Shown here piece after piece: positions 242 through 18,540 of a stretch of 64,000 nucleotides of DNA; positions within the stretch are counted from its first letter, which is position 1; each line of letters opens with the position of its first letter. A program made the translations under genes and the position numbers. Source of the stretch: an uncultured Gemmatimonadales bacterium (GTDB taxonomy: Bacteria > Gemmatimonadota > Gemmatimonadetes > Longimicrobiales > Gaopeijiaceae). The notes beneath the pieces were generated by a model that saw only the letters and a list, made by a program, of their open reading frames with translations, had not been told where the DNA came from and searched no databases. The stretch spans positions 3,136,001 to 3,200,000 of the forward strand of contig CAWELD010000003.1 in NCBI GenBank assembly GCA_963809895.1, written 5' to 3'.

Positions 242-630
242 CCGATGTGGACCGCAGGAGGTCCAGGCTGTGCGGATCCCGCACCTGCCCCCCACACAGC
301 ATGCAGCACTGCTTCGTGGAGCTCCGGGAGGACGTGGACCCACCCGTCCTGTTACGCGCGCCCCAAAGCCCACGCCACATGCTCCCGCACCAGAGACTCC
401 GGATCCTCCAGCGCCTCCCGCAACACCTCCACCGCCTCCTCCGGCGGCTCGTCCACCGAAGCCAGCCAGTTCCCCATGGCCACCGCGACGTTGCGCTTGA
501 ACCCGGCGTAGCCCGCCCGCCGAATCGCCGAGCCACGCGAGAACGCGTCCCAGTCCTCGCGGGTCATCCGCATCAGCTCCACCAGCGACGGCGCATAAGT
601 CCCCGGATGCGGGGGATTACCGACACCCGA

Positions 631-707
631 CGTTTCAACTGAAAGATTCTCTTCGGTCAGCCCGGGATCGGCCCGGCCTCTACCATCGCGCGTTTCAGCT
701 GAAACGC
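631..707. promoter_or_regulatory. Two parS-like palindromes 60 bp apart
   Basis: Perfect 18-bp palindrome GCGTTTCAGCTGAAACGC at 690-707 and a degenerate copy CGTTTCAACTGAAAGA at 631-646. Arms match the parS consensus GTTTCA-CG-TGAAAC but the centre is GC or AC. Function is inferred. Confidence 0.4.
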
Positions 708-803
708 TCCTCCGCCGGGAACCCCTCCACCCAGAAGGGCAGCTCCCCCGCCCCCCGCGCCGCATACCCCGGCTCCGCGCTCACCTCCGCGAAGCGCACG
801 TTG

Positions 804-821
804 AACGGACACACCTCCTGG
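804..821. repeat. Left att junction, 18-bp direct repeat
   Basis: AACGGACACACCTCCTGG, identical to 9997-10014; encodes QEVCP(F) of QueG on the minus strand. Confidence 0.93.
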
Positions 822-904
822 GAGGATTGCCCACTTCCGCGTTACGGGATTTCGCTGAGTACGGGCGATTCAAACAGGGATCGGGCGAATGCTGATCCTG
901 ACGC

Positions 905-2024
905 TCATTCGTGAAGAAGGAGTTCTCGGGCTTCCTGCATTGCCAGGGCTGCTTCCTCTTCACTCAGTCGGATGACGAGATTCCCGGAGGGCTGATCCCC
1001 CAGCCATGGACGCATGTGTTTCCGCCACAGGTCGTAGAGTACAGGCGGGTCAACCGGCACCGGATAGGATCCAAGCGCGAAGGAGCGTCGCGTTCTCGCA
1101 TCATCGTCGAGCTGTTCCCAGTCTTCGGCTGTCGCCCGAAGGCCTGCCTTCAGATCCTGACCGGTGACGAAGGACTGCTCCGCTCCGGTCAGTTGCGGAG
1201 CAAGAAGGCGGTGAACTCGGTCGTCGGAAGCGAGCACATGGGCAAAGGGCATGTAGAAGAGGTACTGCAGGTCGATGAGGTGGGTAGCTCGATCAGAAAG
1301 GAACCGGTGACGTACGGCGATCGCGAGTGAGAGCAGGCACCGAATGCAATGGGCAGCGTACGGGGCGTACTCCTGAGCGTAGGTGAAACCAGAGGCCTGC
1401 CATTGCCGTCTTGCTTGTACCCGTTCAGGCTCGCGAGTTATCAGGGTCTGGAGGGCCCACTCGAACCACACGTCCTGAAGCGCCGTCACCGCCAGCAGGT
1501 CATCCGCGATCAGAACGATTCGAGATTCAGAGTCTGGACGGGGGAGAACGACACGGTTCTCGTTCAGGTACCGCGAAAGAGACGCGACGGAGGCCGAGCG
1601 CAGTGAGCCGCCGCCAGTACGCCGACATCTCAGCCTCTGATTCCGTGAACTGCCCCTGCGACCAGCGGAGGATCGCCTCGTTGAGCGGCGACAAGTCGAT
1701 GTGGACGCCACCTGAGCTGCTCTGGAAGAAGTTGTCGGGAAGGATCTGCCCCGTCATGGGAACCACTCCGCCCAGGAGATCGACGCGGGCGAGTTCCCGA
1801 TACGGGGCGTTCACGGGCCCTCCACTCCCACCGAACTTCCTTGCGAGCGTGGCGACCGCATCGGCGGGCCGTTTGCCGGCTGCCACATCCTTCGTGAGGT
1901 CTCCCAGCACCTCGTAGACGAGCACTGGCGTGATGTTCGGGTACAGATGCTGGAACACCACCACGTGCTCCCTCGCAGAGAGAGCCTGGAACGCTGACTT
2001 GTCGAAGATCGTGATCGGCCCCAT
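905..2024 (-). CDS. Hypothetical protein, possibly PIN-like nuclease fold (one frameshift at ~1600)
   Basis: ORFs 1527-2039 and 905-1711 join on removing one base near 1600 (RRLT-RSASVASLSRY). GGAGG precedes the ATG at 2024. N-terminal ITIFDKS, a VLVYEV motif and C-terminal DLQYLFYMPFAHVLASDD resemble PIN acidic motifs (inference). Confidence 0.6.
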
Positions 2025-2119
2025 GGGCCTTACCTCCACCTCGGGGCCGGTTGAGCTGGCCGATCACTTCCGTGTGGGTTTGCCGCCGCCGGTCAGCCAG
2101 TCAGGGTAGGCCCATCCAG

Positions 2120-4639
2120 TCACGGCAGTCGCGATTCGATCTCTACCTGGGCGGCGGATCGCACCTGCGCTTCTATCTCGGCTTCAACAGCAGTGTATAG
2201 GTCGATCTCCTCCTCGGGAGCGCGGATGCTCACGACGAGCGAGTACCGGGCGGGGAGGTGGTAGCGGTCCATGGCCACGTCGTCCTTCCACCATCCGCCA
2301 ACGGGGTAAATGCCAATGGCGTTTCGGTGAGCCAGGTCGGCTGCGGTCCCTCGCCAGACGTCCGAGTGGATTGAGCCGGAGTTCCTGACGCGCGTGTGGA
2401 GGTCCCAGCGGTCCGAATCTGCCGGACGTACCACGTCGACGTCATCCGACCGCTCAGCTCCACTCAATCGAGCCCGGAACTCGTCGTCCGTCTCGAGCGG
2501 ATGCTTAGCCTCGAACCTGAGGCCGTGCGAAGCATACTGATACCGTCGCTTCCAGCCCCTGTCACCGGGCCTTGGTTCGATGAAGTAGCTGAGCGTGACG
2601 CGCATTTCTACCTCGACCTCCCCGAGGTCGAGCATGAGGTCTTGCGGCCACGGCAGCGGATGAATGTGCATCTCTCGCGTACGCGCGGCTGCGCCGTTCC
2701 GCTCATACGGGCGAAGTTCATCTTGCGCCACGAGGGTGAGGTCATTCCTGGCGCTGTAGAGCGCCCTTTCGAGACTCGGCACGCCATACCCGAAGCGCCT
2801 GAGCAGCGTCTGCTTGTCGAGCAGCCTCAGGGTGCGCACGTCCGCACGCGACCTGGCTCCGGCGCGCCGTAACATGGCTGGTGTCCACTCGGCCGAGTGC
2901 ACAATGAGCGCCCGGATAGTTTCCGGCCATGCATTTGGAAGCTCGGCCGTCAGGTGGCCCGCGAGCTGCGCCGCAAGCGCGGAGGCCGCGCTCGTGGCCC
3001 CGAAGGGGCGATACAGCGCGAGCGCGAGCTGGTTGTTGGTTGTCAGCAGGCTCAGGTCATCGTGTGAGACGGCATGCCGACCGTTCACGATGAGGTTGCC
3101 ACCTTCAAGGACAACGTCCGGCTTGCTCGGCCATGACCTGTCCCACGGGACGGCAGTGCGACTCGTCGGGCACAGGTCTCCCGCGTCGGCCAATGGGGTT
3201 GCGTGCTGGACGGCCGGGTCCACGATGTTGACCCGTTCAGTGAACGCCCCCACGGTGAGAGCGTTCCACGCTTGGGCGGGGCTCTGGATGCCCGCGATGT
3301 CGTTCGCGTCAAGGTAGCCGGCCGGCGTGATCTGGTCCTCGTGCAGGTTACCGGCGGCGACGACGATAAGCCGCCGCGGCTCTCCGTCACCTCCGAAGGC
3401 CATTTGATCCAGTGCCGCCGACCACGAAGACGGCGTACCCCCGTCGTTCGCCGTTTCGGTCGTGGCAAGACAGACAACGCGGCGTCTATGCGGGGCCTGA
3501 GCCTCGGCGCGTGCAACACCCTCCTGCGTGATCGCACCGTAGAGTTCCGGCGGGTTCTGGCCAGATGGAGGGAGGATCTTGACGGCCTCGAGGCGATGCG
3601 TTCGGCGGACGGCGCCAGCCCCAGCAAGCACCCCCGTGAGATCACCGAACGCAGCGAGACCGGCCATGCCCGTGCCGTGTCCGCGCCATCGCGCTGCGTC
3701 ATCGGCCACGCCCCAACCCGGTTCGACCGTGTGTTGGTCGGCGGCCGCCAGAATATCTTCGAGGAGCGGATGCTCACGATTCGCCCCGCTGTCGAGCACC
3801 GTCACAGCTGTTTCGGATTCGACCGGACCGAGGCGCTCCCGCAGGTCCTCGGCCCACGCGGCTTGCTCGCGTGCGGGGAGGTCCAGAAAGAACGTCGGGA
3901 CATCGCCCGCGAGCCTGACCTCAGCGAAGGCAAGCGACTCATGCATGAGCGCAGATAGCCGCTCTGGCGTCGCCAGAGCCAACACCACCTCGCGACCTGG
4001 AAACGTGAGGAAGTGGGGCCGAACCGTGATCTCCAGAGTTCCGGCTGCCGCGAGGAAGACGTCTCGGCGCCCACTCCGGAGCCAGACTTCCCACCACGCT
4101 TCCTGATGAGGCGGTGGGAATGATTCCTGATCCCCCACGTAGATGGAGCGAAGCTCGGCCAGTCGAGCCGTTTCCATCCGCGTAACGAGCCGCTCGTTCC
4201 TTGGGCGTCCGCTACGGCTGTCCTCTCTGGTTCGGTATGCCTCTACCTTGCGGATGATCCGGTCTCCAGAGTCCTGAGGCACGAACAGCGTCGCGACAAG
4301 CTGGTCCTGTTCTTCGTCCGCTCGCGCCGACAGGAGTTCGATATTTCGGACCCGGTGTTCCAAGCTCTGCAGGACCGCTTCCTCACCCGACGGCAACCTG
4401 ACTTCCAAGTAGTATCCGAGTTCGTCGTTCGCGAACTCCGTCCTACGGTTCTCGAGAACCACGTCCCCCTCGGCGAACGCCTCTCGCAGTGCAGTCTCGA
4501 GCGCACGAGCGTGCGCCTCACGATTCCGAGCGGGGTTCGGGGGGTGCTCTATGGGTGGGCCGGGCGGGCGGGTGTACGGAGCAGGTTCGCCGCCGCCTTC
4601 GCGGTAGAAATGCGGAAGGTCGCGAGGGTACACAAGCAC
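2120..4639 (-). CDS. S8 family subtilase-like serine protease (IetS/Y4bN type)
   Basis: Catalytic triad motifs VTVLDSG, GHGTGMAG, GATSAAS; VAAGN oxyanion motif; SPAQAWNALTVGA, KPDVVLEGGN, ALIVHSAEW; no signal peptide; directly follows an AAA ATPase. Confidence 0.92.
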   Translation of the reverse strand: MLVYPRDLPHFYREGGGEPAPYTRPPGPPIEHPPNPARNREAHARALETALREAFAEGDVVLENRRTEFANDELGYYLEVRLPSGEEAVLQSLEHRVRNIELLSARADEEQDQLVATLFVPQDSGDRIIRKVEAYRTREDSRSGRPRNERLVTRMETARLAELRSIYVGDQESFPPPHQEAWWEVWLRSGRRDVFLAAAGTLEITVRPHFLTFPGREVVLALATPERLSALMHESLAFAEVRLAGDVPTFFLDLPAREQAAWAEDLRERLGPVESETAVTVLDSGANREHPLLEDILAAADQHTVEPGWGVADDAARWRGHGTGMAGLAAFGDLTGVLAGAGAVRRTHRLEAVKILPPSGQNPPELYGAITQEGVARAEAQAPHRRRVVCLATTETANDGGTPSSWSAALDQMAFGGDGEPRRLIVVAAGNLHEDQITPAGYLDANDIAGIQSPAQAWNALTVGAFTERVNIVDPAVQHATPLADAGDLCPTSRTAVPWDRSWPSKPDVVLEGGNLIVNGRHAVSHDDLSLLTTNNQLALALYRPFGATSAASALAAQLAGHLTAELPNAWPETIRALIVHSAEWTPAMLRRAGARSRADVRTLRLLDKQTLLRRFGYGVPSLERALYSARNDLTLVAQDELRPYERNGAAARTREMHIHPLPWPQDLMLDLGEVEVEMRVTLSYFIEPRPGDRGWKRRYQYASHGLRFEAKHPLETDDEFRARLSGAERSDDVDVVRPADSDRWDLHTRVRNSGSIHSDVWRGTAADLAHRNAIGIYPVGGWWKDDVAMDRYHLPARYSLVVSIRAPEEEIDLYTAVEAEIEAQVRSAAQVEIESRLP

Positions 4640-4651
4640 GTCAGCCGATCG

Positions 4652-5629
4652 TCACCGGTGTGAGGATTTTCGTTCTGCGATCGCAGAAAGGAGGGTATCG
4701 AGGTCGATCTGGGGCTTCCGCTCGAGAATCGCCGTCTTCGCTGCCTCGTCCGCGGCTCGGGCGACATCGGCTTGGCTCATTCCGGAGGCGGCGCCAGCAA
4801 CTGTCTCCCAGTCGACGGCGCTCGTATCGAACGTCGCAAGCCGCGCATGCATAATCCCGATGGCCACTTCCGCACCTGGCAGAGAGTATTCGATCACATC
4901 GTCGAACCTGCGAAACAGAGCGGGATCGAGTAGTTCCAGATGGTTCGTCGCTGCGATGACAAGCCCTTCGGATTCGTCCTGTTCGAGGAACTGCAGGAAT
5001 GAGTTGAGTACTAGGCGTATTTCTCCGACATCGTTGCCGGCGGACCGCCGGGAGCCGATAGCGTCGAACTCGTCGAAGAAGTAGACGCCTCGCGTCTGTG
5101 CCATGGCGTCGAACACGAGCCGGAACTTGGCGGCAGTCTCTCCCAGGAACTTCGTCAGGACACCCTCCAACCGGATTGTGAAGAGAGGGAGTTTCAATTC
5201 GCCGGCGAGGGCTGCCGCCGTCATCGTCTTGCCCGACCCGGAGGGGCCTACCAGCAACAGCTTTCTCCGTGGCATAAGCCCGTGGGAGCGAAGCTTCAAC
5301 TGTTGCTTCTGCTCATTCAGAACCCGTTTGAGCCGAAGGGCGACCTCATCGGTCAAGACCATGTTGCCGAGCCGAAGGTCCGGGTAGATGACCGAGAGCA
5401 GGTTCGCGATGTCGCCCTGAGGCGGCGTGAGCGGAATCGCGCCCTTGCGCTCGACGGCTGACCGCTTCGCCTTCGCTTCGTCGATGAGCTCACGAAGCTC
5501 CTGTGCGATCTTGGAGTGACCCCGACGAGCCTCATGAGCGGCGGCTTGCATGGCCACGGCCATGAACTGTGCATCATACCCCTCGATGTGGCTCCGCAGC
5601 AGAGCGATGATGTGGCGAGCTGTGCTCAT
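4652..5629 (-). CDS. AAA+ ATPase (IetA type)
   Basis: Walker A GPSGSGKT, Walker B YFFDEFD, IAATNH and LDPALFRRFD second region of homology; 12 bp upstream of the S8 protease. Confidence 0.93.
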   Translation of the reverse strand: MSTARHIIALLRSHIEGYDAQFMAVAMQAAAHEARRGHSKIAQELRELIDEAKAKRSAVERKGAIPLTPPQGDIANLLSVIYPDLRLGNMVLTDEVALRLKRVLNEQKQQLKLRSHGLMPRRKLLLVGPSGSGKTMTAAALAGELKLPLFTIRLEGVLTKFLGETAAKFRLVFDAMAQTRGVYFFDEFDAIGSRRSAGNDVGEIRLVLNSFLQFLEQDESEGLVIAATNHLELLDPALFRRFDDVIEYSLPGAEVAIGIMHARLATFDTSAVDWETVAGAASGMSQADVARAADEAAKTAILERKPQIDLDTLLSAIAERKSSHR

Positions 5630-5774: not shown

Positions 5775-6757
<983 letters not shown>

Positions 6758-7193: not shown

Positions 7194-7571
7194 ATGTCGC
7201 AAGCTCTGAATGCCATCGCGAAGGACTGGCGCCAGGAGGCCGATAATCTCAGCAGCCGCTACGCAGATGGCCGTCTCGCTGCGCTCTGCGAGACCCACGC
7301 CGGAGAGTTGGACGCACTCCTCAGGACCCAGCTCGACGAGGAACTGACTTTGAAGCAGGCAGCTCGGATCAGCGGATACAGCTATTCGCACCTGCGTCGC
7401 CTCCTGGACGCGGGGGAACTGGCCAACATGGGGATCGAAGGGCGCCCCCGCGTGCGCCTTGGTGATCTGCCGTTCAAGGCTGGGCGGGCCGTGCCCCTCG
7501 GAGCGCTGAGTGCCGCGAAGCGGGCGCAGAGCCGTGTGAAGGCCAAGGGTCGGGTACGCCCGATCGGGTGA
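7194..7571 (+). CDS. Helix-turn-helix (HTH_17/excisionase-like) DNA-binding protein
   Basis: LTLKQAARISGYSYSHLRRLLDAGEL is a MerR/Xis-like wHTH pattern; lies immediately upstream of the recombinase. Confidence 0.75.
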   Translation: MSQALNAIAKDWRQEADNLSSRYADGRLAALCETHAGELDALLRTQLDEELTLKQAARISGYSYSHLRRLLDAGELANMGIEGRPRVRLGDLPFKAGRAVPLGALSAAKRAQSRVKAKGRVRPIG

Positions 7572-7652: not shown

Positions 7653-9709
7653 ATGAGCAAGAAGAACGTCATCATCGTCGAGGAAAGGAAGCCCGACCTG
7701 CACGGGGATTCGGTCTTCGAGGTAGAGCTGGAGCCTGGCGTCGAGGCCTCCCCGATTCGCTGGAGCGGTCAGAGCGAGCCGAGGCTCTGGTCCCTCACGC
7801 TGACGCATGTCAGCGGTCTGCAGGTGGTGGTGAGGGAGCGGGTTCGCGGCACTATCGAACTCGAATCGGAGTTCATCGACAGACGCGGAGGTGTTCTCAC
7901 GGTCAAGCCCCTGGTGGGGTTCTTCCCGATCGGATTCGTGTCACACGGAAGAGCTCGCGCGAGGATGAGAAACAGAAGTTCTCGCATGATCAGCAGAACG
8001 ACGACATGACAGCCGAATGGGGGGCGATCGACCCGGTCTGGTGGTGGAAGGAGAGCCGGAGCGGAACCAGCTTCGATCGTCCCTCCTTCCAGGACGTGCT
8101 CGACTTCTGTCGGTCCAATCCTCGCCCTGTCGGGGAGCCCGGCAGAGTGGAATGGTGGGCACCCCACCGGTTCGGGCGTAGCCTGGACGTGAACGGCCAG
8201 CCGGACATCATGAAGTTCATGGCCATGTACAACGAGTTCCAGAACCCGGAGTGGCACCTCCACTTCCTCAAGGTCCCCGGGTGAACCATCCCCTGGGGGA
8301 CGTGTTGAACATCGCTGTCTATGCCTACGCCGCGGCGGTGTACTCCAAGGACCTCTCGGAAAACGCCACCCGCGGTCGGCGTAGCGAGGGCGAGAAGGGT
8401 TGGTGGGTGAACGGCCAGGCTCCGTGGGGGACGAAACGCAAGGACACCCTTGAGGACCGAATTCTCGAGCCTGGCGAGAAGTCGAAGCCGGGTGGCGGGG
8501 GGACGATCCTGGTTGAGGACCCGGACATCCTACCGCATTGGAGGCCGTCCGCGGAGTCGTTCCTGGCGGGCGCCTCGTACAAAGGCATCGGCGAGGACCT
8601 CTACGACGTCGGCTTGCGCGGTCCTCAGGGCGGCGCCTTGGGACACCGACACATCCGGAACTTCCTCACGAACCGGCACCTGATCGGCGAGGTGAAGGTC
8701 CGAGACGCGGATGGCAACGTACAGTGGCCCCCGCCAAGTGGGATGCGCTGGTCGATCGCGCACTGTTCGAGAAGGTCGTGCAGGAGGCGGAGCGGCGGAA
8801 GTCACAGCCCCGGGACAAGAAGCGCACGTCGAAGGGGACCTTCCTCCTGCGGCCCGCATGCGCCCACTGCGGGATCGAGTACCACGGCGGACGTAACGGA
8901 AAGAAGCAGGGGAGTGCATGCACATACGTCCACCCGAAACCCCACAAGGTCCATCACCCCGAGATCTACGACGCCTATGTGGAGCACGAGTGCCGCGGGT
9001 GGACTGTACTCGCGGACGAGCTCGAAGGGGCGGTCAAGGACCTCATTCTCCGTGAGCGGACGTCTGTAGGCTACGAAGAGGAGATCCGGGCGCTGATCCT
9101 GGAGAAGGAGCAGTTCGAGCAGGGCGCCGCCGCCGCGGTGAAGGCGGCTGAGCAGAAGGTTGAAGACCTGGAGACCCAGCATCGGAGCCAAAGCCGGAGG
9201 TTGGCTCGTCTTCAGGAGAGGGAGATCGATGAGGACGCGCCCCTCGACGAACTGCGAGGCGACCCAGCAGAAGCTCAACGCCGCCCGATCAGAGGTCGAG
9301 AAGGCGCACGAGTTCCGACGCTCCCGAAGAGGTGGCCTGGGACCGCCTATCGAAGGTCATCGACGAGACGCGCAACCTTGCCGAGACGTGGGACAAGGTC
9401 GGGCTCGATGAGCGTAGGCTCCTACTCGACTGGTGGGTCCTGGACGTCCAGATCGTCGTGGAGCCGATCGAAGGGATGAAGAAGGCCAACGAAAAGACGG
9501 CCATCGTGACGCTCCGAAGTGACCCGAACGCCTCCCGCTACTTCGGGCTCGGTAACCGCCTCTCCAAGGCCGACTCGAGTTCGCCCCGGACGAACGCGTC
9601 GTCTTCTGATTCCGACGCCGCCGACAGCACGTCGGCGGCGTCTGCCGAGTCGATGCACCGCAAGCGCCCCGGCGGCGTGCCCGCGAACCAATGGATCAGG
9701 GTCTTGTAG
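7653..9709 (+). CDS. Large serine recombinase (integrase), frameshifted in this assembly
   Basis: Pieces across frames: (Y)TRKSS catalytic motif at ~7941-7957, SGTSFDRPSF, RFGRS, YSKDLSENATRG...GWWVNGQAPWG recombinase domain, CAHCG...C...C zinc ribbon, coiled coil, ERRLLL C-terminal motif. Frameshifts near 7941, 8280, 8730, 9255 and 9325. True stop is uncertain (see findings). Confidence 0.88.
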
Positions 9710-10895
9710 CGCCGACGCCAGCACGGGAACCGCCGCGTCCAAGCCCCAGTTGCCGAGTGCCACGCAGACGTTGCGGGCGAACCCGGAGCGTCCTGCACGT
9801 CGGATGGCGGAGCCGCGGGAGAACGATCCCCAGGAGGACTCGTCGAGAGCGGTCGTCAGCAGGTCGATCAGCGACGGCGAGGAGGTGCCGGGGTACCAGA
9901 CGTCCGACGGGAGCGGGCTCCACGCCGAACGGTGGTTGTCCTGGCGATCGGGCAGAGTATGCGGGCTCGGAGGAGGGGGTTGAGAACTTACGGGTAAACG
10001 GACACACCTCCTGGCAGATGTCGCAGCCGAACACCCGGTTCCCCATGAGGGGGCGGAGCTCTTCGGGAATCGCGCCACGGTGCTCGATGGTCAGGTAGGA
10101 GATGCACCGGGTTGCGTCCATGACCGGCGCGCCGTCCTCGTCGCGTCCCAGGAGCGCGCCCGTGGGGCAGGCGTCGAGGCACGCCCGGCACGAGCCGCAG
10201 TGGTCCGCCTCGAAGGGCTCGTCGGGGGGCAACTCCACATCCAGCAGCAGCACGCCCAGGAAGAACCACGAGCCTCGCCGGGGATGGATGAGCATGGTGT
10301 TCCGGCCGAACCAGCCGAGGCCGGCGCGCTGTGCCAAGTCCCGCTCGAGAATCGGGCCGGTGTCGACGTAGGCGCGGCCCGCGACTGCGGCGGGCGCCTC
10401 GGCGCCCTCTCTCCGCGCACCACCACCCGCGCCATCCGCGCCGCCGCCCGGCGGCCCGCCGACCCGCTCGTCTCCACCAGCACGCGCCCCCACTTCTCCC
10501 TCCAGCCACCGCAGCAATCCGAACAGCTTCTTCTTCACCACCTTGTGGTAGTCCCGTCCGCGCGCGTAGCGGGCGATGACGCCCACCCCGGGATCCCCCG
10601 GGACTCCGGGTGCGTCCTCCTGGAAGTACTCGTGGGCCACCACCAGCACCGAACGGACGTCCTCGAAGGTGCCGCGCAGATCCTCGCGGCGAGCCACCGC
10701 CTCGGGGCGGGCGAGGTAGTCCATGTCGCCGTGGCGACCCTCGGCCAGCCAGCGGCGGAAGAACGCCCCGTGCCTCGACGCGTCCGGCCGCGCGATGCCG
10801 GCAAGCGAGAACCCGCGCCGCCGGGCCTCCTCCTTCAGGTCGTCCGCGAGCCTTCGCGCCAGCACCCGCCGCCGCGCCGCACCTTCGTCCGTCAC
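9538..10895 (-). CDS. queG: tRNA epoxyqueuosine(34) reductase QueG, chimeric (host 5' part plus element-borne 3' part)
   Basis: ARYARGRDYH, YVDTGPILER, AGLGWFGRN, CGSCRACLDACPT, RCISYLTIE, GCDICQEVCP motifs. GTG start overlaps the upstream TGA. The 3' part (9538-9996) needs two 1-nt corrections (~9917, ~9661) to read ...SFSRGSAIRRAGRSGFARNVCVALGNW...LQDPDPLVRGHAA.ALRCIDSADAA...RLPSPK*. Confidence 0.92.
9997..10014. repeat. Right att junction, 18-bp direct repeat
   Basis: Identical to 804-821; sequence composition changes at this point. Confidence 0.93.
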
Positions 10896-11992
10896 GCCGC
10901 CCGACCCCTCCGGTTGCGGGCCACCACGTCGAGAATGCGCTCGTGCTGCGCGAAGATCACGAGCTCGTCGCCCGCCGCCACGCGCTCGTCGGGCTCGGGG
11001 TCCACGGTGACGCTGCCGTGCCGGCACACCAGGACGATTTCCATGGTGTTGTCACGCTCCAGGTCGCCCACCGCTGCCCCAGCCAGGAACGAGCGCTCCC
11101 CGACCGTGAGCCGGATGGTCGAGTACTCCTCGCCGCCGATCTCCAGCGTCTGGGTGATCTCGATACCCAGCGCGGCCCCGGCGAAGGCGGGGGCCGACAG
11201 GTCGGCGGCGCTCATGACCGTGTCCACCATGCCGAAGCGCTGCATCTGATCGCCGATGGCCCGGTCCCACACCCGGGCCACCACCCGCACCTGACCGTTC
11301 AGCTCCCGCACCTTCATGACGGTCTCGAGGTTCACGCGGTCGTCGCCGGTGCACGCCACGAACACCTCCGCATGGGGCAGACCGGCGCGCTCGAGCGTGA
11401 TCGCCCGGCGGCCATCCCCCATAACCACGGGCACGTTCAAGCTCTCCAGCACCTCCTGCACTTCTTCGTTGGGACTGTGGTCCACCACCACCACCGGCAG
11501 TCCCATGTCCCGCAGGTCCCTCACCACACGCAGGCCCACGTGCCCGGCGCCGAAGACGATGGCGTGATTGCGATAGGTCATGGCCAGGGCCTCCCCCCAG
11601 CGGTCGCGGTTGTCGTCGCGGTTGAAGAACAGATCGAGAAAGTCCGCCGCGCCCAGGCCCACCAGCACGATGAACGTCACGGGCATGAGGTACCAGAACA
11701 GCGCCAGGTACCACGCCGACGGCACGTCTTCCGGGGCCTCCAGCAGCATGAGCTGCACGATGACGTAGGGGCGGTCGAACAGCGGGATCGCGGCGCCGCC
11801 GGCCAACCGGTGCAGCTCGCCGTAGACCAACCCCCCGATCGCCGTCACGAGCACGAATCCCCAGATCGAGACCCGGAACTCGCGCAGCAGCGCCAGGAAG
11901 TGGTAGCGCACCGCACTCACCCGTTGCACCGCACGGCGCAGGGCGGACACGCGCCGGGGCGCAGCCAGGCGACTGCCGACGACGCTGGACAC
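10892..11992 (-). CDS. TrkA/RCK-domain potassium channel family protein
   Basis: Two TM segments, then HAIVFGAGHVG Rossmann (TrkA_N) and a C-terminal TrkA_C (VAAGDELVIFA); GGAGG precedes GTG at 11992. Confidence 0.85.
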   Translation of the reverse strand: MSSVVGSRLAAPRRVSALRRAVQRVSAVRYHFLALLREFRVSIWGFVLVTAIGGLVYGELHRLAGGAAIPLFDRPYVIVQLMLLEAPEDVPSAWYLALFWYLMPVTFIVLVGLGAADFLDLFFNRDDNRDRWGEALAMTYRNHAIVFGAGHVGLRVVRDLRDMGLPVVVVDHSPNEEVQEVLESLNVPVVMGDGRRAITLERAGLPHAEVFVACTGDDRVNLETVMKVRELNGQVRVVARVWDRAIGDQMQRFGMVDTVMSAADLSAPAFAGAALGIEITQTLEIGGEEYSTIRLTVGERSFLAGAAVGDLERDNTMEIVLVCRHGSVTVDPEPDERVAAGDELVIFAQHERILDVVARNRRGRAA

Positions 11993-12159: not shown

Positions 12160-12534
12160 ATGGAGGCAATTGGAGCAGCAGGTGGGCCATCGCCGAGGGC
12201 TACATCCCCGAGGAGAGCACGGGTCCCGAGCCCGCGATGACGAGCCACGAGACCGGCGTGCCTCCTCAACACCTCGGATCGGGACGCCCACGTGCGACAT
12301 CACGGTCTACTTCGCGCGACCGCGAGCCCGTCGGGCCCGTATCGCGTCACGGTCCCGCCCCGGCGCACCCGCCACGTCCGCTTCAACGACCTCGACGACC
12401 CGGAGCCGATCCCGCGGGGGACCGACTACGCCAGCGTGATCGAGTCCGACGTGCCCGTCGTGGTGCAGCACACGCGGCTGGACTCGCGGCAGGCGGAGAA
12501 CGCGCTCCTGACGACGATCGCCTATCACGAATGA
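12160..12534 (+). CDS. Anabaena sensory rhodopsin transducer (ASRT) family protein, frameshifted
   Basis: WAIAEGYIP...SHET, PYRVTVP.RRTRHVRFNDLDDPEPIPRGTDYASVIESDVPVVVQHTRLDSRQAENALLTTIAY; RBS GAGGA before the ATG at 12160. Confidence 0.85.
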
Positions 12535-12563
12535 CGATCCAGCCTGACGCCGGAGGAGGACCC

Positions 12564-14383
12564 ATGAGCCAGACCGTCGCCGACTATCTCGTGCACCGCC
12601 TCCGCGAGTGGGGCGTCGACCCGCATCTTCGGCTATCCCGGGCGACGGCATCAACGGGATCATGGGCGCCCTCAACCGCGCCGAGGACGAGGTCGAGTTC
12701 GTCCAGGCCCGGCACGAGGAGCTGGCCGCCTTCATGGCCTGCGCCCACGCCAAGTTCACCGGCGAGGTGGGCGTCTGCCTCGCCACCTCCGGGCCCGGCG
12801 CCATCCACCTGCTGAACGGCCTCTACGACGCCAAGATGGACCACCAGCCGGTGGTGGCCATCGTCGGCCAGCAGGCGCGCGCCGCGCTGGGCGGCGACTA
12901 CCAGCAGGAGGTGGACCTCGATCTCCCTGTTCAAGGACGTGGCGCACCACTACGTGCCACATGGCCACGACGCCGGAGCAGACGCGGCACCTGGTGGACC
13001 GCGCCGTGCGCATCGCGAAGGCCGAGCGCGACGTCACCTGCATCATCTTCCCCAACGACGTCCAGGAGCATCGACCACCGAGGAGCCCGCCCCGCGCGCA
13101 CGGCACGGTGCACTCCGGCGTCGGCTACACGGCCGCCGCGCGTGGTCCCGCACGACGAGCGACCTGCGAGCGCGCCGCCGACGTCCTCAACGAGGGCGAG
13201 CGGGTCGCGATGCTGGTCGGGCCAGGGCGCGCTCGGCGCCACGCGAGGAGGTGATGGAGGTCGCCGACCTGCTGGGCGCCGGCGTGGCCAAGGCCATGCT
13301 CGGCAAGGCGGTCCTCGACGACGACCTGCCCTACTGCACCGGCGCGCATCGGCCTGCTGGGCACCAAGCCGTCCTGGAACCTCATGCAGGACTGCGACAC
13401 GCTCCTCATGGTCGGCACGAGCTTCCCGTACTCGGAGTTCCTGCCCGCCCGAAGGCCAGGCGCGCGGCGTCCAGATCGACATCGAGCCCCCGCATGCTCG
13501 GCATCCGCTACCCGACCGAGGTGCAACCTGGTCGGGCGACGCGCAGGAGACGTTGCGCGCGCTGATGCCCCACCTGGACCGCAAGGCGGACCGCCGCTGG
13601 CGCGAGGACGATCGAGGAGGACGTGGCCGAGTGGTGGACAGCTGCTCGAGGCGCGCGCCATGAACGACGCCGATCCCGATCAACCCGCAGCGGGTCTTCT
13701 GGGAGCTCTCGCCGCGCCTTGCCCGACGACGTGCATCCTGGCGTCGGACTCGGGCTCGGCGGCCAACTGGTACATGCGCGACCTGAAGGTGCGGCCGGGC
13801 ATGATGGCGTCGCTCTCGGGCAACCTCGCCACCATGGGTCCGGGCGTGCCCTACGTCATCGCGGCCAAGTTCGCCCATCCCGACCGGCCCGGCGATCGCC
13901 CTGGTCGGCGACGGCGCGATGCAGATGAACGGCATCAACGGCCTGATCACCATCGCCAAGTACTGGAAGCGACTGGGAGGATCCCGCGCCTGATCGATGT
14001 GCGTGCTCAACAACCAGCGACCTGAACCAGGTGACCTGGGAGCAGCGCGTCATGGAGGGCGACCCCGAGTTCGAGGCGTCCCAGAACGTCCCCGGGCTTC
14101 CGCTACGCGCGACTACGCCGAGCGGCTCGGCCTCAAGGGCATCCGCGTCGAGGACCCGGAGGCGCTGGGCCGGCGCGTGGGACGCGGCGCTCTCCGCCGA
14201 CCGGCCCACCGTGCTCGACGTGCGAGACCGACCCGAACGTCCCGCCGCTGCCGCCCCACATCAGCTTCGAACAGGCGCGCAAGTTCGCCCGCTCCATGCT
14301 GGAGGGCGACCCGCACCGGCGGGGCGTGATCGAAGCAGAGGGTCAAGGAGATGGTCGAGACCCTCGTTCCGCGAGCAGCTGAG
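12564..14383 (+). CDS. Thiamine pyrophosphate-requiring enzyme (pyruvate oxidase/PoxB-like), many frameshifts
   Basis: MSQTVADYLVHRLREWGV, PGDGINGI, QARHEELAAFMA, ATSGPGAIHLLNGLYDAKMD, SGNLATMG and GDGAMQMNG...LNN motifs spread across frames. End is approximate. Confidence 0.85.
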
Positions 14384-14392
14384 GACGGCGCC

Positions 14393-15514
14393 GTGGGCTC
14401 CCCCGACCATCTCCCGGTGCCGGCGGTGGAGACCGAGGGCGTACTCGGTTCCCACCGACGCCCCGGAGTCGGACGGCACGCTGACCTGGGACGCCACGGG
14501 CCTGGTGGTGGTCCACGCCCGGGCCGGCGACGAGACCGGGCTCGGCTTCGCCTACACCATCGCCGGCCGCCGCCAGGCTCGTCGAGCAGCACGCTGGCGC
14601 CGGCGTTGGCGGGCGAGGACGCGCTGGCGCCGCGGGCGGCCTGGCATCGCATGTGGCACGCAGGTCCGCAACCTGGGTCGACCGGGGGTCGCGTCGTCGG
14701 CCATCGCGGCGGTGGACATCGCGCTGTGGGATCTGAAGGCCCGCCTCCTGGGCGTCCCGCTGGTGGACCTCTTCGGGGCGCTGCGCGCAGGCGATCCCGG
14801 CCTACGGAAGCGGGGGATTCACCTCGTACTCCGCTCGACCGGCTCCGGACGCAACTGGCCGGCTGGGCCGAAGCAGGGCTTCGCGCATGTGAAGATGAAG
14901 GTGGGGCGCGACCCCGACTGCCGACCCCGAGCGGGTGGCGGCCGCCCGCGAAGCCATGGGCGACGACGTGGCGCTCTTCGTGGACGCCAACGGCGCGCTA
15001 CGACCGCAAGCAGGCCCTGGCCTGCGACCGTCAGCTTCCGCGAGGAGTGGGGCGTCACGTGGATGGAGGAGCCGGTCTCCTCGGACGACCATGAAGGGCC
15101 TGCGGCTGCTCCGCGACCAGGGCCCCGCCGGGCATGGCACATCGCGGCCGGGGAGTACGGTGGGACCTGTTCGACTTCCGCGCGCTGCTGGAGGCGCGGC
15201 GCGGTCGACGTCGCTGCAGGCGGACGTCGGACCGCTGCGGCGGCTACACCGCCGTTCCTGCGGGTCGCCGCGCTGTGCGACGCCCACTGCGTCCCGCTGT
15301 CCGCCCACACGGCGCCGGCCTCCACACACCGGCCATGTGCGCCGTCCACCGCGCTATCCACGTCGAGTACTTCCACGACCACGCGCGCATCGAGTCCCTG
15401 CTCTTCGACGGAGCGCCTCGGCCCGAGGACGGCATGCTGCGCCCCCGCCGCGATCGGCCCGGGCATGGCCTGACCTTCAAACGATCGGATGCAGAGGACT
15501 ACCGTGTCACATGA
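14393..15514 (+). CDS. Mandelate racemase/muconate lactonizing (enolase superfamily) protein, frameshifted
   Basis: VPTDAPESDGTLTWD, AIAAVDIALWDLKARLLG, KMKVG, LFVDANGA, WMEEPVSSDD, AAGEYG, HVEYFHDH. Confidence 0.82.
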
Positions 15515-15557
15515 TGCCGAGGAGCGAGGAGAGGGCGGATCGAGATCGAGGGCGGTC

Positions 15558-18540
15558 GTGCTGCCCGTCGCAGGGCCGCGAGGCTTCAGCGGCGAGACCG
15601 CGGACGCGCGGCGCCTGGCCTCGGCGCTGACGGAGCCGCTGGAGGGAGACGTCCGCTTCGACGCAGGTCATCGGGCGGCGTACAGCCACCGATGCCTCCA
15701 ACTACCGCCAGCCACCGATGGGGGTGGTGCTGCCCCGGAGCAAGGAGGACGTGGAGCGCACGGTGGCGCATGTGCCGCGAGCACGGGGCGCCCGATCCTC
15801 GGCCGCGGAGGCGGCACGAGCCTGGCGGGCCAGTGCTGCAACGTGGCGGTGGTGCTGGATTTCACGCCGCTACATGAACCGGGTCCTGGAGATCGACCCG
15901 GAGCGCCGCATCGCCCGGGTGCAGCCGGGCTGCGTGCTGGACGACCTGCGCGAGGCGGCCGCCGAAGCACGGGCTGACCTTCGGGCCCGACCCGGCGACG
16001 CACGACCGCTGCACCCTCGGCGGAATGATCGGCAACAACTCGTGCGGCATCCACTCGGTCCATGGCGCACTGGCACCACGGCCCGCGCACCTCGGACAAC
16101 GTCTCGCGCCTCGAGGTCCTCACCTACGACGGCGCGCGCTTCTGGACCGGGCCGACCGACGACGAGGCTACCGGGCGCATCCAGGAGGCCGGCGGACGCC
16201 GGGCGGAGATCTACCGCGGACTGCGCGAGCTGCGTGAGCGACCACGCAGAGGAGATCCGCGCGCGCTATCCCGGACATCCCGCGGCGGGTGAGCGGCTAC
16301 AACCTGGACGAGCTGCTGCCGGAGAACGGCTTCAACGTGGCCCGGGCGCTGGTGGGCAGCGAGTGCACGCTGCGCTGATGGTCCTGGAAGCGGAGCTGCA
16401 CCTGATCCCCAAGCCCGCCGCCGACGCCCTGGTGCTGGTGGGCTACCGGGACGTCTACGAGGCCGCGGAGGACGTGCCCGACGATCATGGAGCTGCGAGC
16501 CCATCGGGCTGGAGGCGATCGACGAGCGGCTGATCGACTACATGAAGCGCAAAGGGCCTCAACGTCGAGGACCTGCGGGCTGCTGCCGGAGGGCAGCGCC
16601 TACCTGCTGGTGGAGTTCGGCGGCGACAGATCGCGAGGAGGCCGAGCGCGCGCGCCCAGGAATTCCGCGACGCCTTCGCGAGGACCGCGACGCGTCCCGT
16701 GGCGGTGAAGCTCTACGACGACCCCGAGGCCGAAGCGAAGGTCTGGGAGGTGCGCGAGTCGGGCCTGGGCGCGACGGCCTTCGTCCCGGGCATGCGCGCG
16801 ACACCTGGCCGGGTTGGGAGGACTCGGCGGTGCCGCCCGAACGGCTCGGGCGACTATCTGCGGGACTTCCGGCGCCTACTGGACGACCACGGCTACGACT
16901 GCTCCTTCTACGGCCACTTCGGCCAGGGCCTGCTGCACACCCGCATCGACTTCGCAGCTCGACCACCAGCCGCGGCATCCGCGCAGTTCATGCACTTCCT
17001 GAGGGACGCCGCCGGACCTGGTGACGTGCGCTACGGAGGCTCCCTCTCCGGCGAGCACGGCGACGGGCAGGCCCGCGGCGGCGCTGCTGTCGAAGATGTA
17101 CGGGCCGAGCCTCGACGGAGGCCTTCCGGACGTTCAAGCGCCTATGGGACCCCGAGTGGTAGGATGAACCCCGGGAAGGTCGTCGACGCCTGGCTCCCCG
17201 ACGAGAACCTGCGGGTCGGTGCCGGACTGGGAGCCCGAAGAGAACGCGGACACGTGGTTCGCCTTCCCGGACGACCACGGCAGCTTCGCCGCGGGCCACG
17301 CTCCGGTGCGTGGGCGTGGGGAAGTGTCGCCGTCACGGCGGCGGGACCATGTGTCCCAGCTACATGGCCACCCATGAGGAGCGGCACGCCACCCGGGGAC
17401 GGCGCGCATCCTGAACGAGATGATGCGCGGGCGAAGTCGTCACGCGACGGCTGGAGGAGCGAGGAGGCCCGGGAGGCCCTCGACCTGTGCCTGGCGTGCA
17501 AGGGATGCAAGGGCGACTGCCCCGTGAACGTCGACATGGCCACGTACAAGGCCGAGTTCATGGCGCACCATTACGAAGGTCGCCTCCGACCCCGCGCTCG
17601 CACTATGCCTTCGGGGGGATCTACTGGTGGTCGCGTTTGGCCTCTCACGCGCCCCGCCTGGTGAACTGGCTCGGGCGGACGCGCCCCCTTCTCGCGGCTC
17701 GCGAAGTGGGCGGCGGACGTGCATCCCCGCCGCACCATGCCGACCTTCGCGGAGCGGACCTTCAAGGACCTCTTCTTCTCCGAGCTCGCAGGGCGCGAAC
17801 CCCGACGGCCCGAAGGTCCTCTTCTGGGCCGACACCTTCAAGAACTACCTGCACCCCGAGCCCGCCATCGCCGCGGTGCGGGTGCTGCAGGCCCTCGGAT
17901 ATCAGCGTGGTCGGTCCCCGGCGCCGTCCCTGTGCTGCGGCCGCCCCCTCTACGACTTCGGCTTCCTGGGAAGGGCGAAGAAGCTGCTGCGGCAGACGAT
18001 GGAGGAGCTCCACGACGACATCGTCGATGGGCGTCCCCGTCGTCGGCGTCGAGCCGAGCTGCGTGGCCGCCTTCCGCGACGAGCTGCGTCGCAGCTCTTC
18101 CCGGAGGACCACGGTGGCCAGGCGGATGTCCCGCCAGACCTGGCTCTTCGGGGAGTTCCTCGATCGCTACGCGGCCGACGTCGATCTCCCGCGCCTGGGC
18201 GGCACCGCCCTGCTACACGGCCACTGCCACCAGAGGGCCGTGCTGGACTTCGACGCCGACCGCCGGGTCCTGGACCGGCTGGGGATCGAGGCCGAGCGTG
18301 CCCGAGTCCGGATGCTGCGGGATGGCCGGCCCCTTCGGCTTCGAGCGCGACCACTTCGATGTGAGCCAGGCGTGCGCGGAGCGGGTGCTCCTGCCCGCGG
18401 TACGCGACCGCGAAGACGGCGCGATGGTGGTCACCGACGGCTTCAGCTGCCGGACGCAGATCGAGCAGAACCATCGAAGGTGTGCGCCCGCTCAACCTGG
18501 CAGAGGTGGTATGGCGAGCCATGGAACGAGCACGGCATGA
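15558..18540 (+). CDS. FAD-binding and (Fe-S)-binding oxidoreductase (GlcD/GlcF-type fusion), frameshifted
   Basis: GRGGGTSLAGQ, GGMIGNNSCG, SLSGEHGDGQAR, MNPGKV, CLACKGCKGDCP, CCGRP, HGHCHQ, CCGMAG, DGFSCRTQI. Start is approximate. Confidence 0.85.

Follow-up and report, generated by a model that had tools for sequence, protein, structure and literature searches.

A queG-targeting serine recombinase whose encoded C-terminus depends on the state of its DNA

We analysed a 64,000-nucleotide stretch of contig CAWELD010000003.1 (positions 3,136,001 to 3,200,000; assembly GCA_963809895.1) from an uncultured Gemmatimonadales bacterium, here called the window. The window contains an element of about 9.2 kb that is inserted in queG and bounded by two 18-bp identities of its attachment (att) site (Table 1). 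The recombinase frame of the element converges on an element-borne replacement 3' end of queG, continues through it on the opposite strand and reaches the att site. Judged from sequence comparisons, the C-terminus of this frame in the free (attP) state is under coding selection, and the two DNA states encode two C-termini. The peptide encoded by the far arm of attP is very probably the true, state-dependent C-terminus of the recombinase. The initial annotation, made from the window alone, had proposed that the DNA codes on both strands as far as att and that the C-terminus depends on the DNA state, and both hold across the family.

The family was collected with the middle piece of the recombinase as a query, which had matches in 15 of 301 genomes from the order, and with a C-terminal profile, which matched 8 of 73, 11 of 71 and 15 of 251 genomes in three families. 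These denominators include unpublished genomes and no claim is built on their sequences. The named relatives are Gemmatimonadota, and the source of family member P0005 names it as AHG89847.1 of Gemmatirosa kalamazoonensis; two scans of viral contigs gave no relative. The collection yielded 35 distinct queG tails on which a recombinase end converges, where the C-terminal half of the recombinase was intact in 21, frameshifted in 2 and a remnant in 12. The frame relation between recombinase and queG was uniform with coinciding third codon positions, except for remnants with a slip at the junction. With five more distant recombinases, no adjoining queG tail was found.

The crossover and the far-arm peptide

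The recombinase pieces of the window scored 18.1 bits with PF00239, below the cut-off of 23.3, and 22.5 bits with PF07508, above the cut-off of 21.1; homologues carry both domains. The predicted integrated form matched serine integrase folds with an E value of 2e-16 (PDB entries 9rah, 9iu2 and 4kis among the matches). In the family, R27 and S29 are present at at least 90%, C336, C339 and C380 are invariant, and long helices span residues 407-508. Palindrome symmetry was scored at 15 attP junctions, of which 4 were natural and 11 inferred. It peaked at one centre, with 15.0 of 23 pairs symmetric, compared with 4.6-7.2 at 21 others. This centre is the CA of the Gln codon in CQEVCP, and the symmetry stops at base 22. 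We conclude that the enzyme is a large serine recombinase with a palindromic attP around a 2-bp centre.

On the recombinase strand the palindrome centre is TG, which starts a codon that the partner DNA completes with its third base. The crossover, whose position was itself deduced from the symmetry, would therefore be in frame. When the host Cys codon is TGT, a TGA stop arises at the crossover, whereas TGC gives Trp and read-through into host queG. TGT was present in 25 of 106 native hosts and in 10 of 30 element hosts, and the read-through tails range from 5 to more than 100 residues. We also assembled 57 database proteins of the recombinase family, 53 of them with the C-terminal core; 20 of the 57 end right at the crossover, 27 continue into a host tail and 2 carry the arm tail. 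The tail of the integrated state is not conserved and so is probably passive. The initial annotation had proposed that integration swaps one tail for another, and both tails that it named are present in the window. The state dependence of the C-terminus stands, but not the idea of two functional tails, since integration leaves either a stop or a variable host sequence.

For the far arm, 37 junctions were found and 30 passed the arm filter. Of the dropped ones, five were unrelated or spurious and two fitted the motif but were short or different by one base. In the recombinase frame, the arms encode the peptide W-E-x-C-[RP]-x-x-[RH]-[FY]-x-I-x-L-x-T-G-x-R-T-[LV] followed by a basic end. The length was exactly 25 residues in 17 of the 30 arms, and the stop was at codon 26 in 19 (TAG 15, TAA 2, TGA 2); one arm has a stop at codon 2. 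Since the symmetry ends at base 22, the codons of the peptide from 9 to 25 fall outside the att arm, and no stop was found in the codons beyond the att arm in any of the 30. When single-base differences in codons 9-20 were counted, the synonymous share was 0.67, compared with 0.26 in column shuffles (none of 1000 reached 0.67), at a mean arm identity of 55%. Elsewhere the share was 0.10-0.25 in four frames and 0.53 in the mirror (queG) frame. The mirror frame was tried as the source of the coding signal and rejected, with a BLOSUM score of 1.37 against 2.07 in the recombinase frame and with 18 of 31 interrupted by stops.

When 1.84 billion proteins were searched with a profile, 171 matched. 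Among the best 150 of the 171, 123 proteins were parsed, selected by the profile and partly overlapping the junction set; counted from the Trp, 43 of them have 25 residues and 10 have 26. Most library matches are attL-type frames that end in the peptide, and arms persist in cassettes without a recombinase, as expected if the peptide were made at the attL junction independently of the recombinase, by an antisense frame of the displaced tail that ends in it, and acted in trans. The library frames are gene-caller predictions, however, no start codon is conserved, and about half of the native tails have stops in the frame, as does the displaced tail of the window with two. We consider such expression highly improbable. 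The absence of a conserved start also ruled out an independent small gene on the arm, and leaves the recombinase at the attP junction as the sole conserved upstream frame. Natural attP-type frames occur in tandem arrays and contigs (L025, L099, L134, P0098, P0124, P0142, P0161, P0207 and the full-length P0199).

The conserved residues of the peptide are internal (F9, I11, L13, T15, G16 and T19), and positions 21-25 are variable, with the commonest residue at 13-31% of the 123 proteins. This bears on the reading of the peptide as a degradation tag that makes the free form unstable and the integrated form stable. The logic and the size, 25 versus 33 residues, would resemble the repressor of mycobacteriophage BPs (PMC4557955); a fixed length and a disordered linker, which a protease could use, would also fit. 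Against this, the last five residues vary freely without an ssrA-like ending, and a newly entered element needs its integrase most. A degradation tag is therefore unlikely.

Structure predictions were made for both forms. In the AlphaFold model of the integrated form, residues 570-822 had a predicted local distance difference test (pLDDT) score below 50, and the integrated piece retains every known domain. In the natural attP-type fragment L099, the linker scored about 30-50, and the peptide block, which forms a strand at 245-250, reached 78. The only possible partners of this strand in the model are two C-terminal core strands, which we take to belong to the zinc-ribbon DNA-binding domain. 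Foldseek with the attP-type model returned nothing at E <=0.001, and a complex prediction of the core (1-575) with the peptide scored 0.00 in two runs, which is uninformative either way.

The open frame through the replacement queG tail

The initial annotation had seen no stop in the recombinase frame at 9332-9709 ahead of the queG stop (9538-9540), and the resulting antisense overlap is present in the window. It had placed the two single-base removals that restore the frame near 9661 and 9917; in an alignment with three relatives the single extra bases are at 9660 and 9915. Relatives have full queG frames across att, broken in the window by these two bases.

Openness of the antisense frame was scored from tail codon 6 to the tail stop. 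The frame was open in all 21 elements with an intact C-terminal half and in both frameshifted ones, in 9 of 12 remnants, in 7 of 10 displaced tails and in 56 of 106 native tails. Homologous elements thus keep the frame open to att, in line with the initial annotation. The native tails were parsed from 130 queG loci fetched for the purpose and from two other tails; the remaining loci bore an element, were unpublished (4), ran off a contig end or escaped the pattern. The query used to rank the first 30 controls by similarity contained 31 element-tail residues, which biases toward open controls. By host family, the native frame was open in 9 of 39 (f1), 21 of 25 (f2), 13 of 20 (f3) and 12 of 21 tails (f5), and in one unassigned tail.

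At family-matched rates, the chance of 21 open frames in 21 is about 1e-5 (hand calculation), and 6.7 stops were expected from the amino acids and codon use of the tails but none was observed (7e-4), both figures assuming an independence that fails. In a quick tree, the element tails were placed in several clades among the native tails of their own host lineages. The 53 database proteins that have the C-terminal core extend to att in 49 cases and end within the linker in 4, and none ends at the core (three rows were reclassified by eye); one of the four is marked partial and the others are cut or drift in frame. To look for selection on the residues of the linker, transversions were counted at sites that change the antisense residue. 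They amounted to 40/179 vs 88/230 in the linker of 9 element pairs and to 219/799 vs 443/1308 in 49 native pairs, a difference with p of about 0.06 (hand calculation). We conclude from the tail comparisons that the linker is kept open, since openness to att appears to exceed chance in elements with an intact recombinase C-half.

The same data bear on a passive run-on, in which the frame is merely stop-poor and the arm is conserved as DNA, as an extended binding site that only looks coding. Such a run-on would fit the 56 open native tails, the weak amino-acid constraint on the linker and the arms retained in recombinase-less cassettes. It would not fit the use of all four Gly and Thr codons and five Leu codons at fixed columns of the arm, nor the sharing of codon 26 by TAG, TAA and TGA, nor that no family member stops at the core. 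We regard it as improbable.

Two observations concern the origin of the tails. In P0018, P0024 and P0025 the linkers mirror queG types of greater divergence, a hint of hosts or captures beyond the sampled lineages. In 8 of the 106 native tails (L034, L035, L037, L040, L056 and similar), an element-type attP arm motif is present with no downstream recombinase; these are probably replacement tails that survived the decay of an element.

The window copy, its cargo and the tandem arrays

The family profile spans the recombinase of the window from 7907 to 10011 in seven pieces. Frame changes occur in the core at about 8276, 8716, 9249 and 9325, besides the two in the overlap; with six changes, the copy as assembled would be unable to make the protein. 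Outside the element, the same type of frame test gave only 2 frame changes among 61 matched loci (56 kb). The copy is thus locally mis-assembled or decaying. Assembly error is favoured, though unproven, because the changes break queG too, because of a long A run at 5861-5922 in the Mrr-like gene, because host frames at 12.5-16 kb look broken with many frame changes (12500-16000, judged by eye), together suggesting poor local assembly, and because of gap counts in two close contigs from sequencing runs. In these contigs the number of gaps, for which positions are not given, equals that of the window frame changes (two over 9356-10038 in X3 record 21; one over 8342-8977 in X1 record 6).

The initial annotation had further described a 31-residue circle tail that overlaps the convergent stop at 905-907. 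This length is probably the product of one further error, a single base in the G run at 863-865. From 866 the neighbouring frame runs for nine residues to a TGA at 893-895 and would yield exactly the 25-residue family length.

Table 1. Features of the element and its target in the window
Feature	Position	Strand	Remark
Displaced original queG 3' part, HEAT-like end	352..820	-	frame change near 730
Left copy of the 18-bp att identity	804..821		inferred crossover dinucleotide 819-820 (TG on +, CA of Gln codon on -)
Far-arm frame, conserved C-terminal peptide	819..914	+	joins recombinase frame only after excision; 31 residues as assembled
Cargo: two overlapping open reading frames	905..2039	-	no family match; possibly one broken gene
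Cargo: IetS-like subtilase and IetA-like AAA ATPase	2120..5629	-	subtilase 2120-4639; ATPase 4652-5629
Cargo: Mrr-type endonuclease	5786..6724	-	gene end interrupted by long A run, ~5861-5922
HTH_17 (excisionase-like) gene	7194..7571	+	relative in just one other element among those examined
Large serine recombinase core	7907..9537	+	four frame changes in present assembly
Antisense-coded recombinase linker, ~157 codons	9538..10011	+	third codon positions coincide with those of queG; extra bases 9660, 9915
Element-borne replacement queG 3' end	9538..10013	-	first 22 bases are the attP arm; convergent with recombinase
Right copy of the 18-bp att identity	9997..10014		inferred crossover dinucleotide 10012-10013
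Integrated-state tail, Trp + 27 residues, host queG read antisense	10012..10098	+	length not conserved
Host queG 5' part	10014..10907	-	TIGR00276, 273.9 bits vs cut-off 200

A promoter and terminator scan of the window at 600-1100 gave no match. In the displaced queG tail, a short palindrome of the gtttcagctgaaac type occurs twice in frame (630-706) and encodes VSAET. This peptide is also present in insertions of other native queG genes (L039, L047, L052), resembling coding palindromic repeats.

Tandem arrays with up to seven queG tails were observed at queG (L305-L307 in G700:C21, 68-125 kb; L312-L313 in G773; L308-L311 in G512; L314-L315 in G532; L316-L317 in G423). Most units are cassettes of 2.5-12 kb that lack a recombinase of the family and combine varied cargo with a far arm and a short tail of host type, an integron-like accretion. 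Their arms appear to have less regular stops (21-41 residues). An element in G700 carries an OLD-like TOPRIM ATPase and a UvrD helicase (L306:6939-10698), a Gabija-like pair.

A possible DNA-state switch and known systems

We propose a switch in which the free element makes the complete integrase and integration removes a C-terminal module needed for efficient integration. We give this an even chance, the role of the module being deduced from the sequence. The recombinase would target queG and have attP inside the last codons of its own gene, in the order core (about 540 residues), disordered linker (about 150 residues, antisense on the replacement queG tail), crossover codon and 25-residue far-arm module. 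As read from the sequence, the free form encodes all three parts. Integration carries the DNA of the module to the opposite end of the element, and what remains is a stop or host read-through. The linker may be translated and held open only to deliver the module, whose F-x-I-x-L strand would join the C-terminal beta sheet of the recombinase while its basic end contacts DNA. The form with the module would integrate efficiently, and the shortened integrated form would be weak or require a separate factor for excision; the state of the DNA would thereby set the state of the enzyme. As to its origin, attP may have been near the 3' end of the gene when a captured queG tail landed between core and crossover, and only stop-free versions survived.

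A candidate for a directionality factor or regulator is a conserved helical open reading frame of about 75 residues that directly precedes the recombinase in L107 (9697-9921) and in ten more elements, with the pattern L-P-x-x-L-A-x-L-[VI]-N-P ... R-x-R-R-R-R. It was not found in the window or in five other elements, and a search in the ESM Atlas gave no usable match. This frame also bears on a brake of the opposite sign, by which the peptide would act in cis in the free form to hinder re-integration or promote synapsis of the excision type. According to PMC5737554, fusion of a directionality factor to the integrase C-terminus lets it act within the subunit and tolerates linker changes. A form that promotes excision but is produced only after excision would be of little use, though, and 11 elements have the separate small frame upstream; such a brake is quite unlikely. 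It is possible, but rather doubtful, that the enzyme controls its direction in cis, with recombination adding or removing the module and no trans factor required for the switch, so that the free element makes an integrating enzyme and the integrated one a different enzyme, and that it also builds the integron-like arrays of recombinase-less cassettes at queG.

Several points weigh against the proposed switch. The effect may run in more than one direction, as the module may aid integration, block excision or destabilise the enzyme. The fold model has low overall confidence, with a pLDDT of 61.7 and a predicted template modelling score of 0.37, it shows no contacts, and the peptide rows of the alignment behind it were unpaired. 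Recombinases at the naturally occurring attP-type junctions of genomes are broken, and P0199 has a degenerate peptide. The frame is often open by chance, as the initial annotation had cautioned and the native tails of f2 demonstrate, related elements are not independent, and remnants mostly remain open (9 of 12). Many peptide-bearing arms are in cassettes without an adjoining recombinase, which the model does not explain.

We consider the feature itself real; it would extend the att-inside-gene switch to a serine integrase. If the switch is true, serine integrases, which are genome-engineering enzymes, gain such a switch, and a natural short peptide may set direction or activity. Integrases mined from integrated genomes can miss the true C-terminus, as the 2 arm peptides among 57 database proteins illustrate. 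The 450-base antisense overlap would be a clean natural case of a frame held by open-frame selection, with native queG genes as a built-in control. In a literature search of mostly open-access papers, which did not cover the supplements of recombinase surveys that may list queG, we found, judging from titles and the openings of abstracts, no report of a queG-targeting serine recombinase, of an att site within a serine recombinase gene, or of queG as a target of 3'-end-restoring islands.

Target-restoring genomic islands carry the 3' end of their target, such as the tRNA, ssrA, icd, comM and rlmH types. The element resembles them in that the replacement 3' end keeps queG whole and in the tandem accretion at one site, and differs in that the replacement (130-165 codons) also codes on the opposite strand. 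With the phiC31, Bxb1 and Listeria phage integrases, the enzyme shares the catalytic, recombinase and zinc-ribbon/coiled-coil domains and a palindromic attP of about 46 bp with a central dinucleotide. To our knowledge, the genes of known large serine integrases end before attP, whereas the frame of the element crosses it. Known large serine integrases switch direction through a separate recombination directionality factor (PMC5737554).

The 'suicidal' tyrosine integrases of the archaeal SSV family also have the att site within the integrase frame, and integration cuts the gene (PMC7253208). They use tyrosine instead of serine chemistry. In the element, only 25 of about 730 residues, at the very end of the protein, are lost through the cut, and the catalytic and DNA-binding domains stay whole; the target is a protein gene that is restored, and the frame reaches att only through the antisense replacement host tail. 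In mycobacteriophage BPs, attP is in the repressor gene and integration removes an ssrA-like C-terminal tag of 33 residues (PMC4557955). A short C-terminus is thus lost on integration in both systems, there an ssrA-like tag from a repressor, and here 25 residues with an internal strand motif and a variable end from a recombinase.
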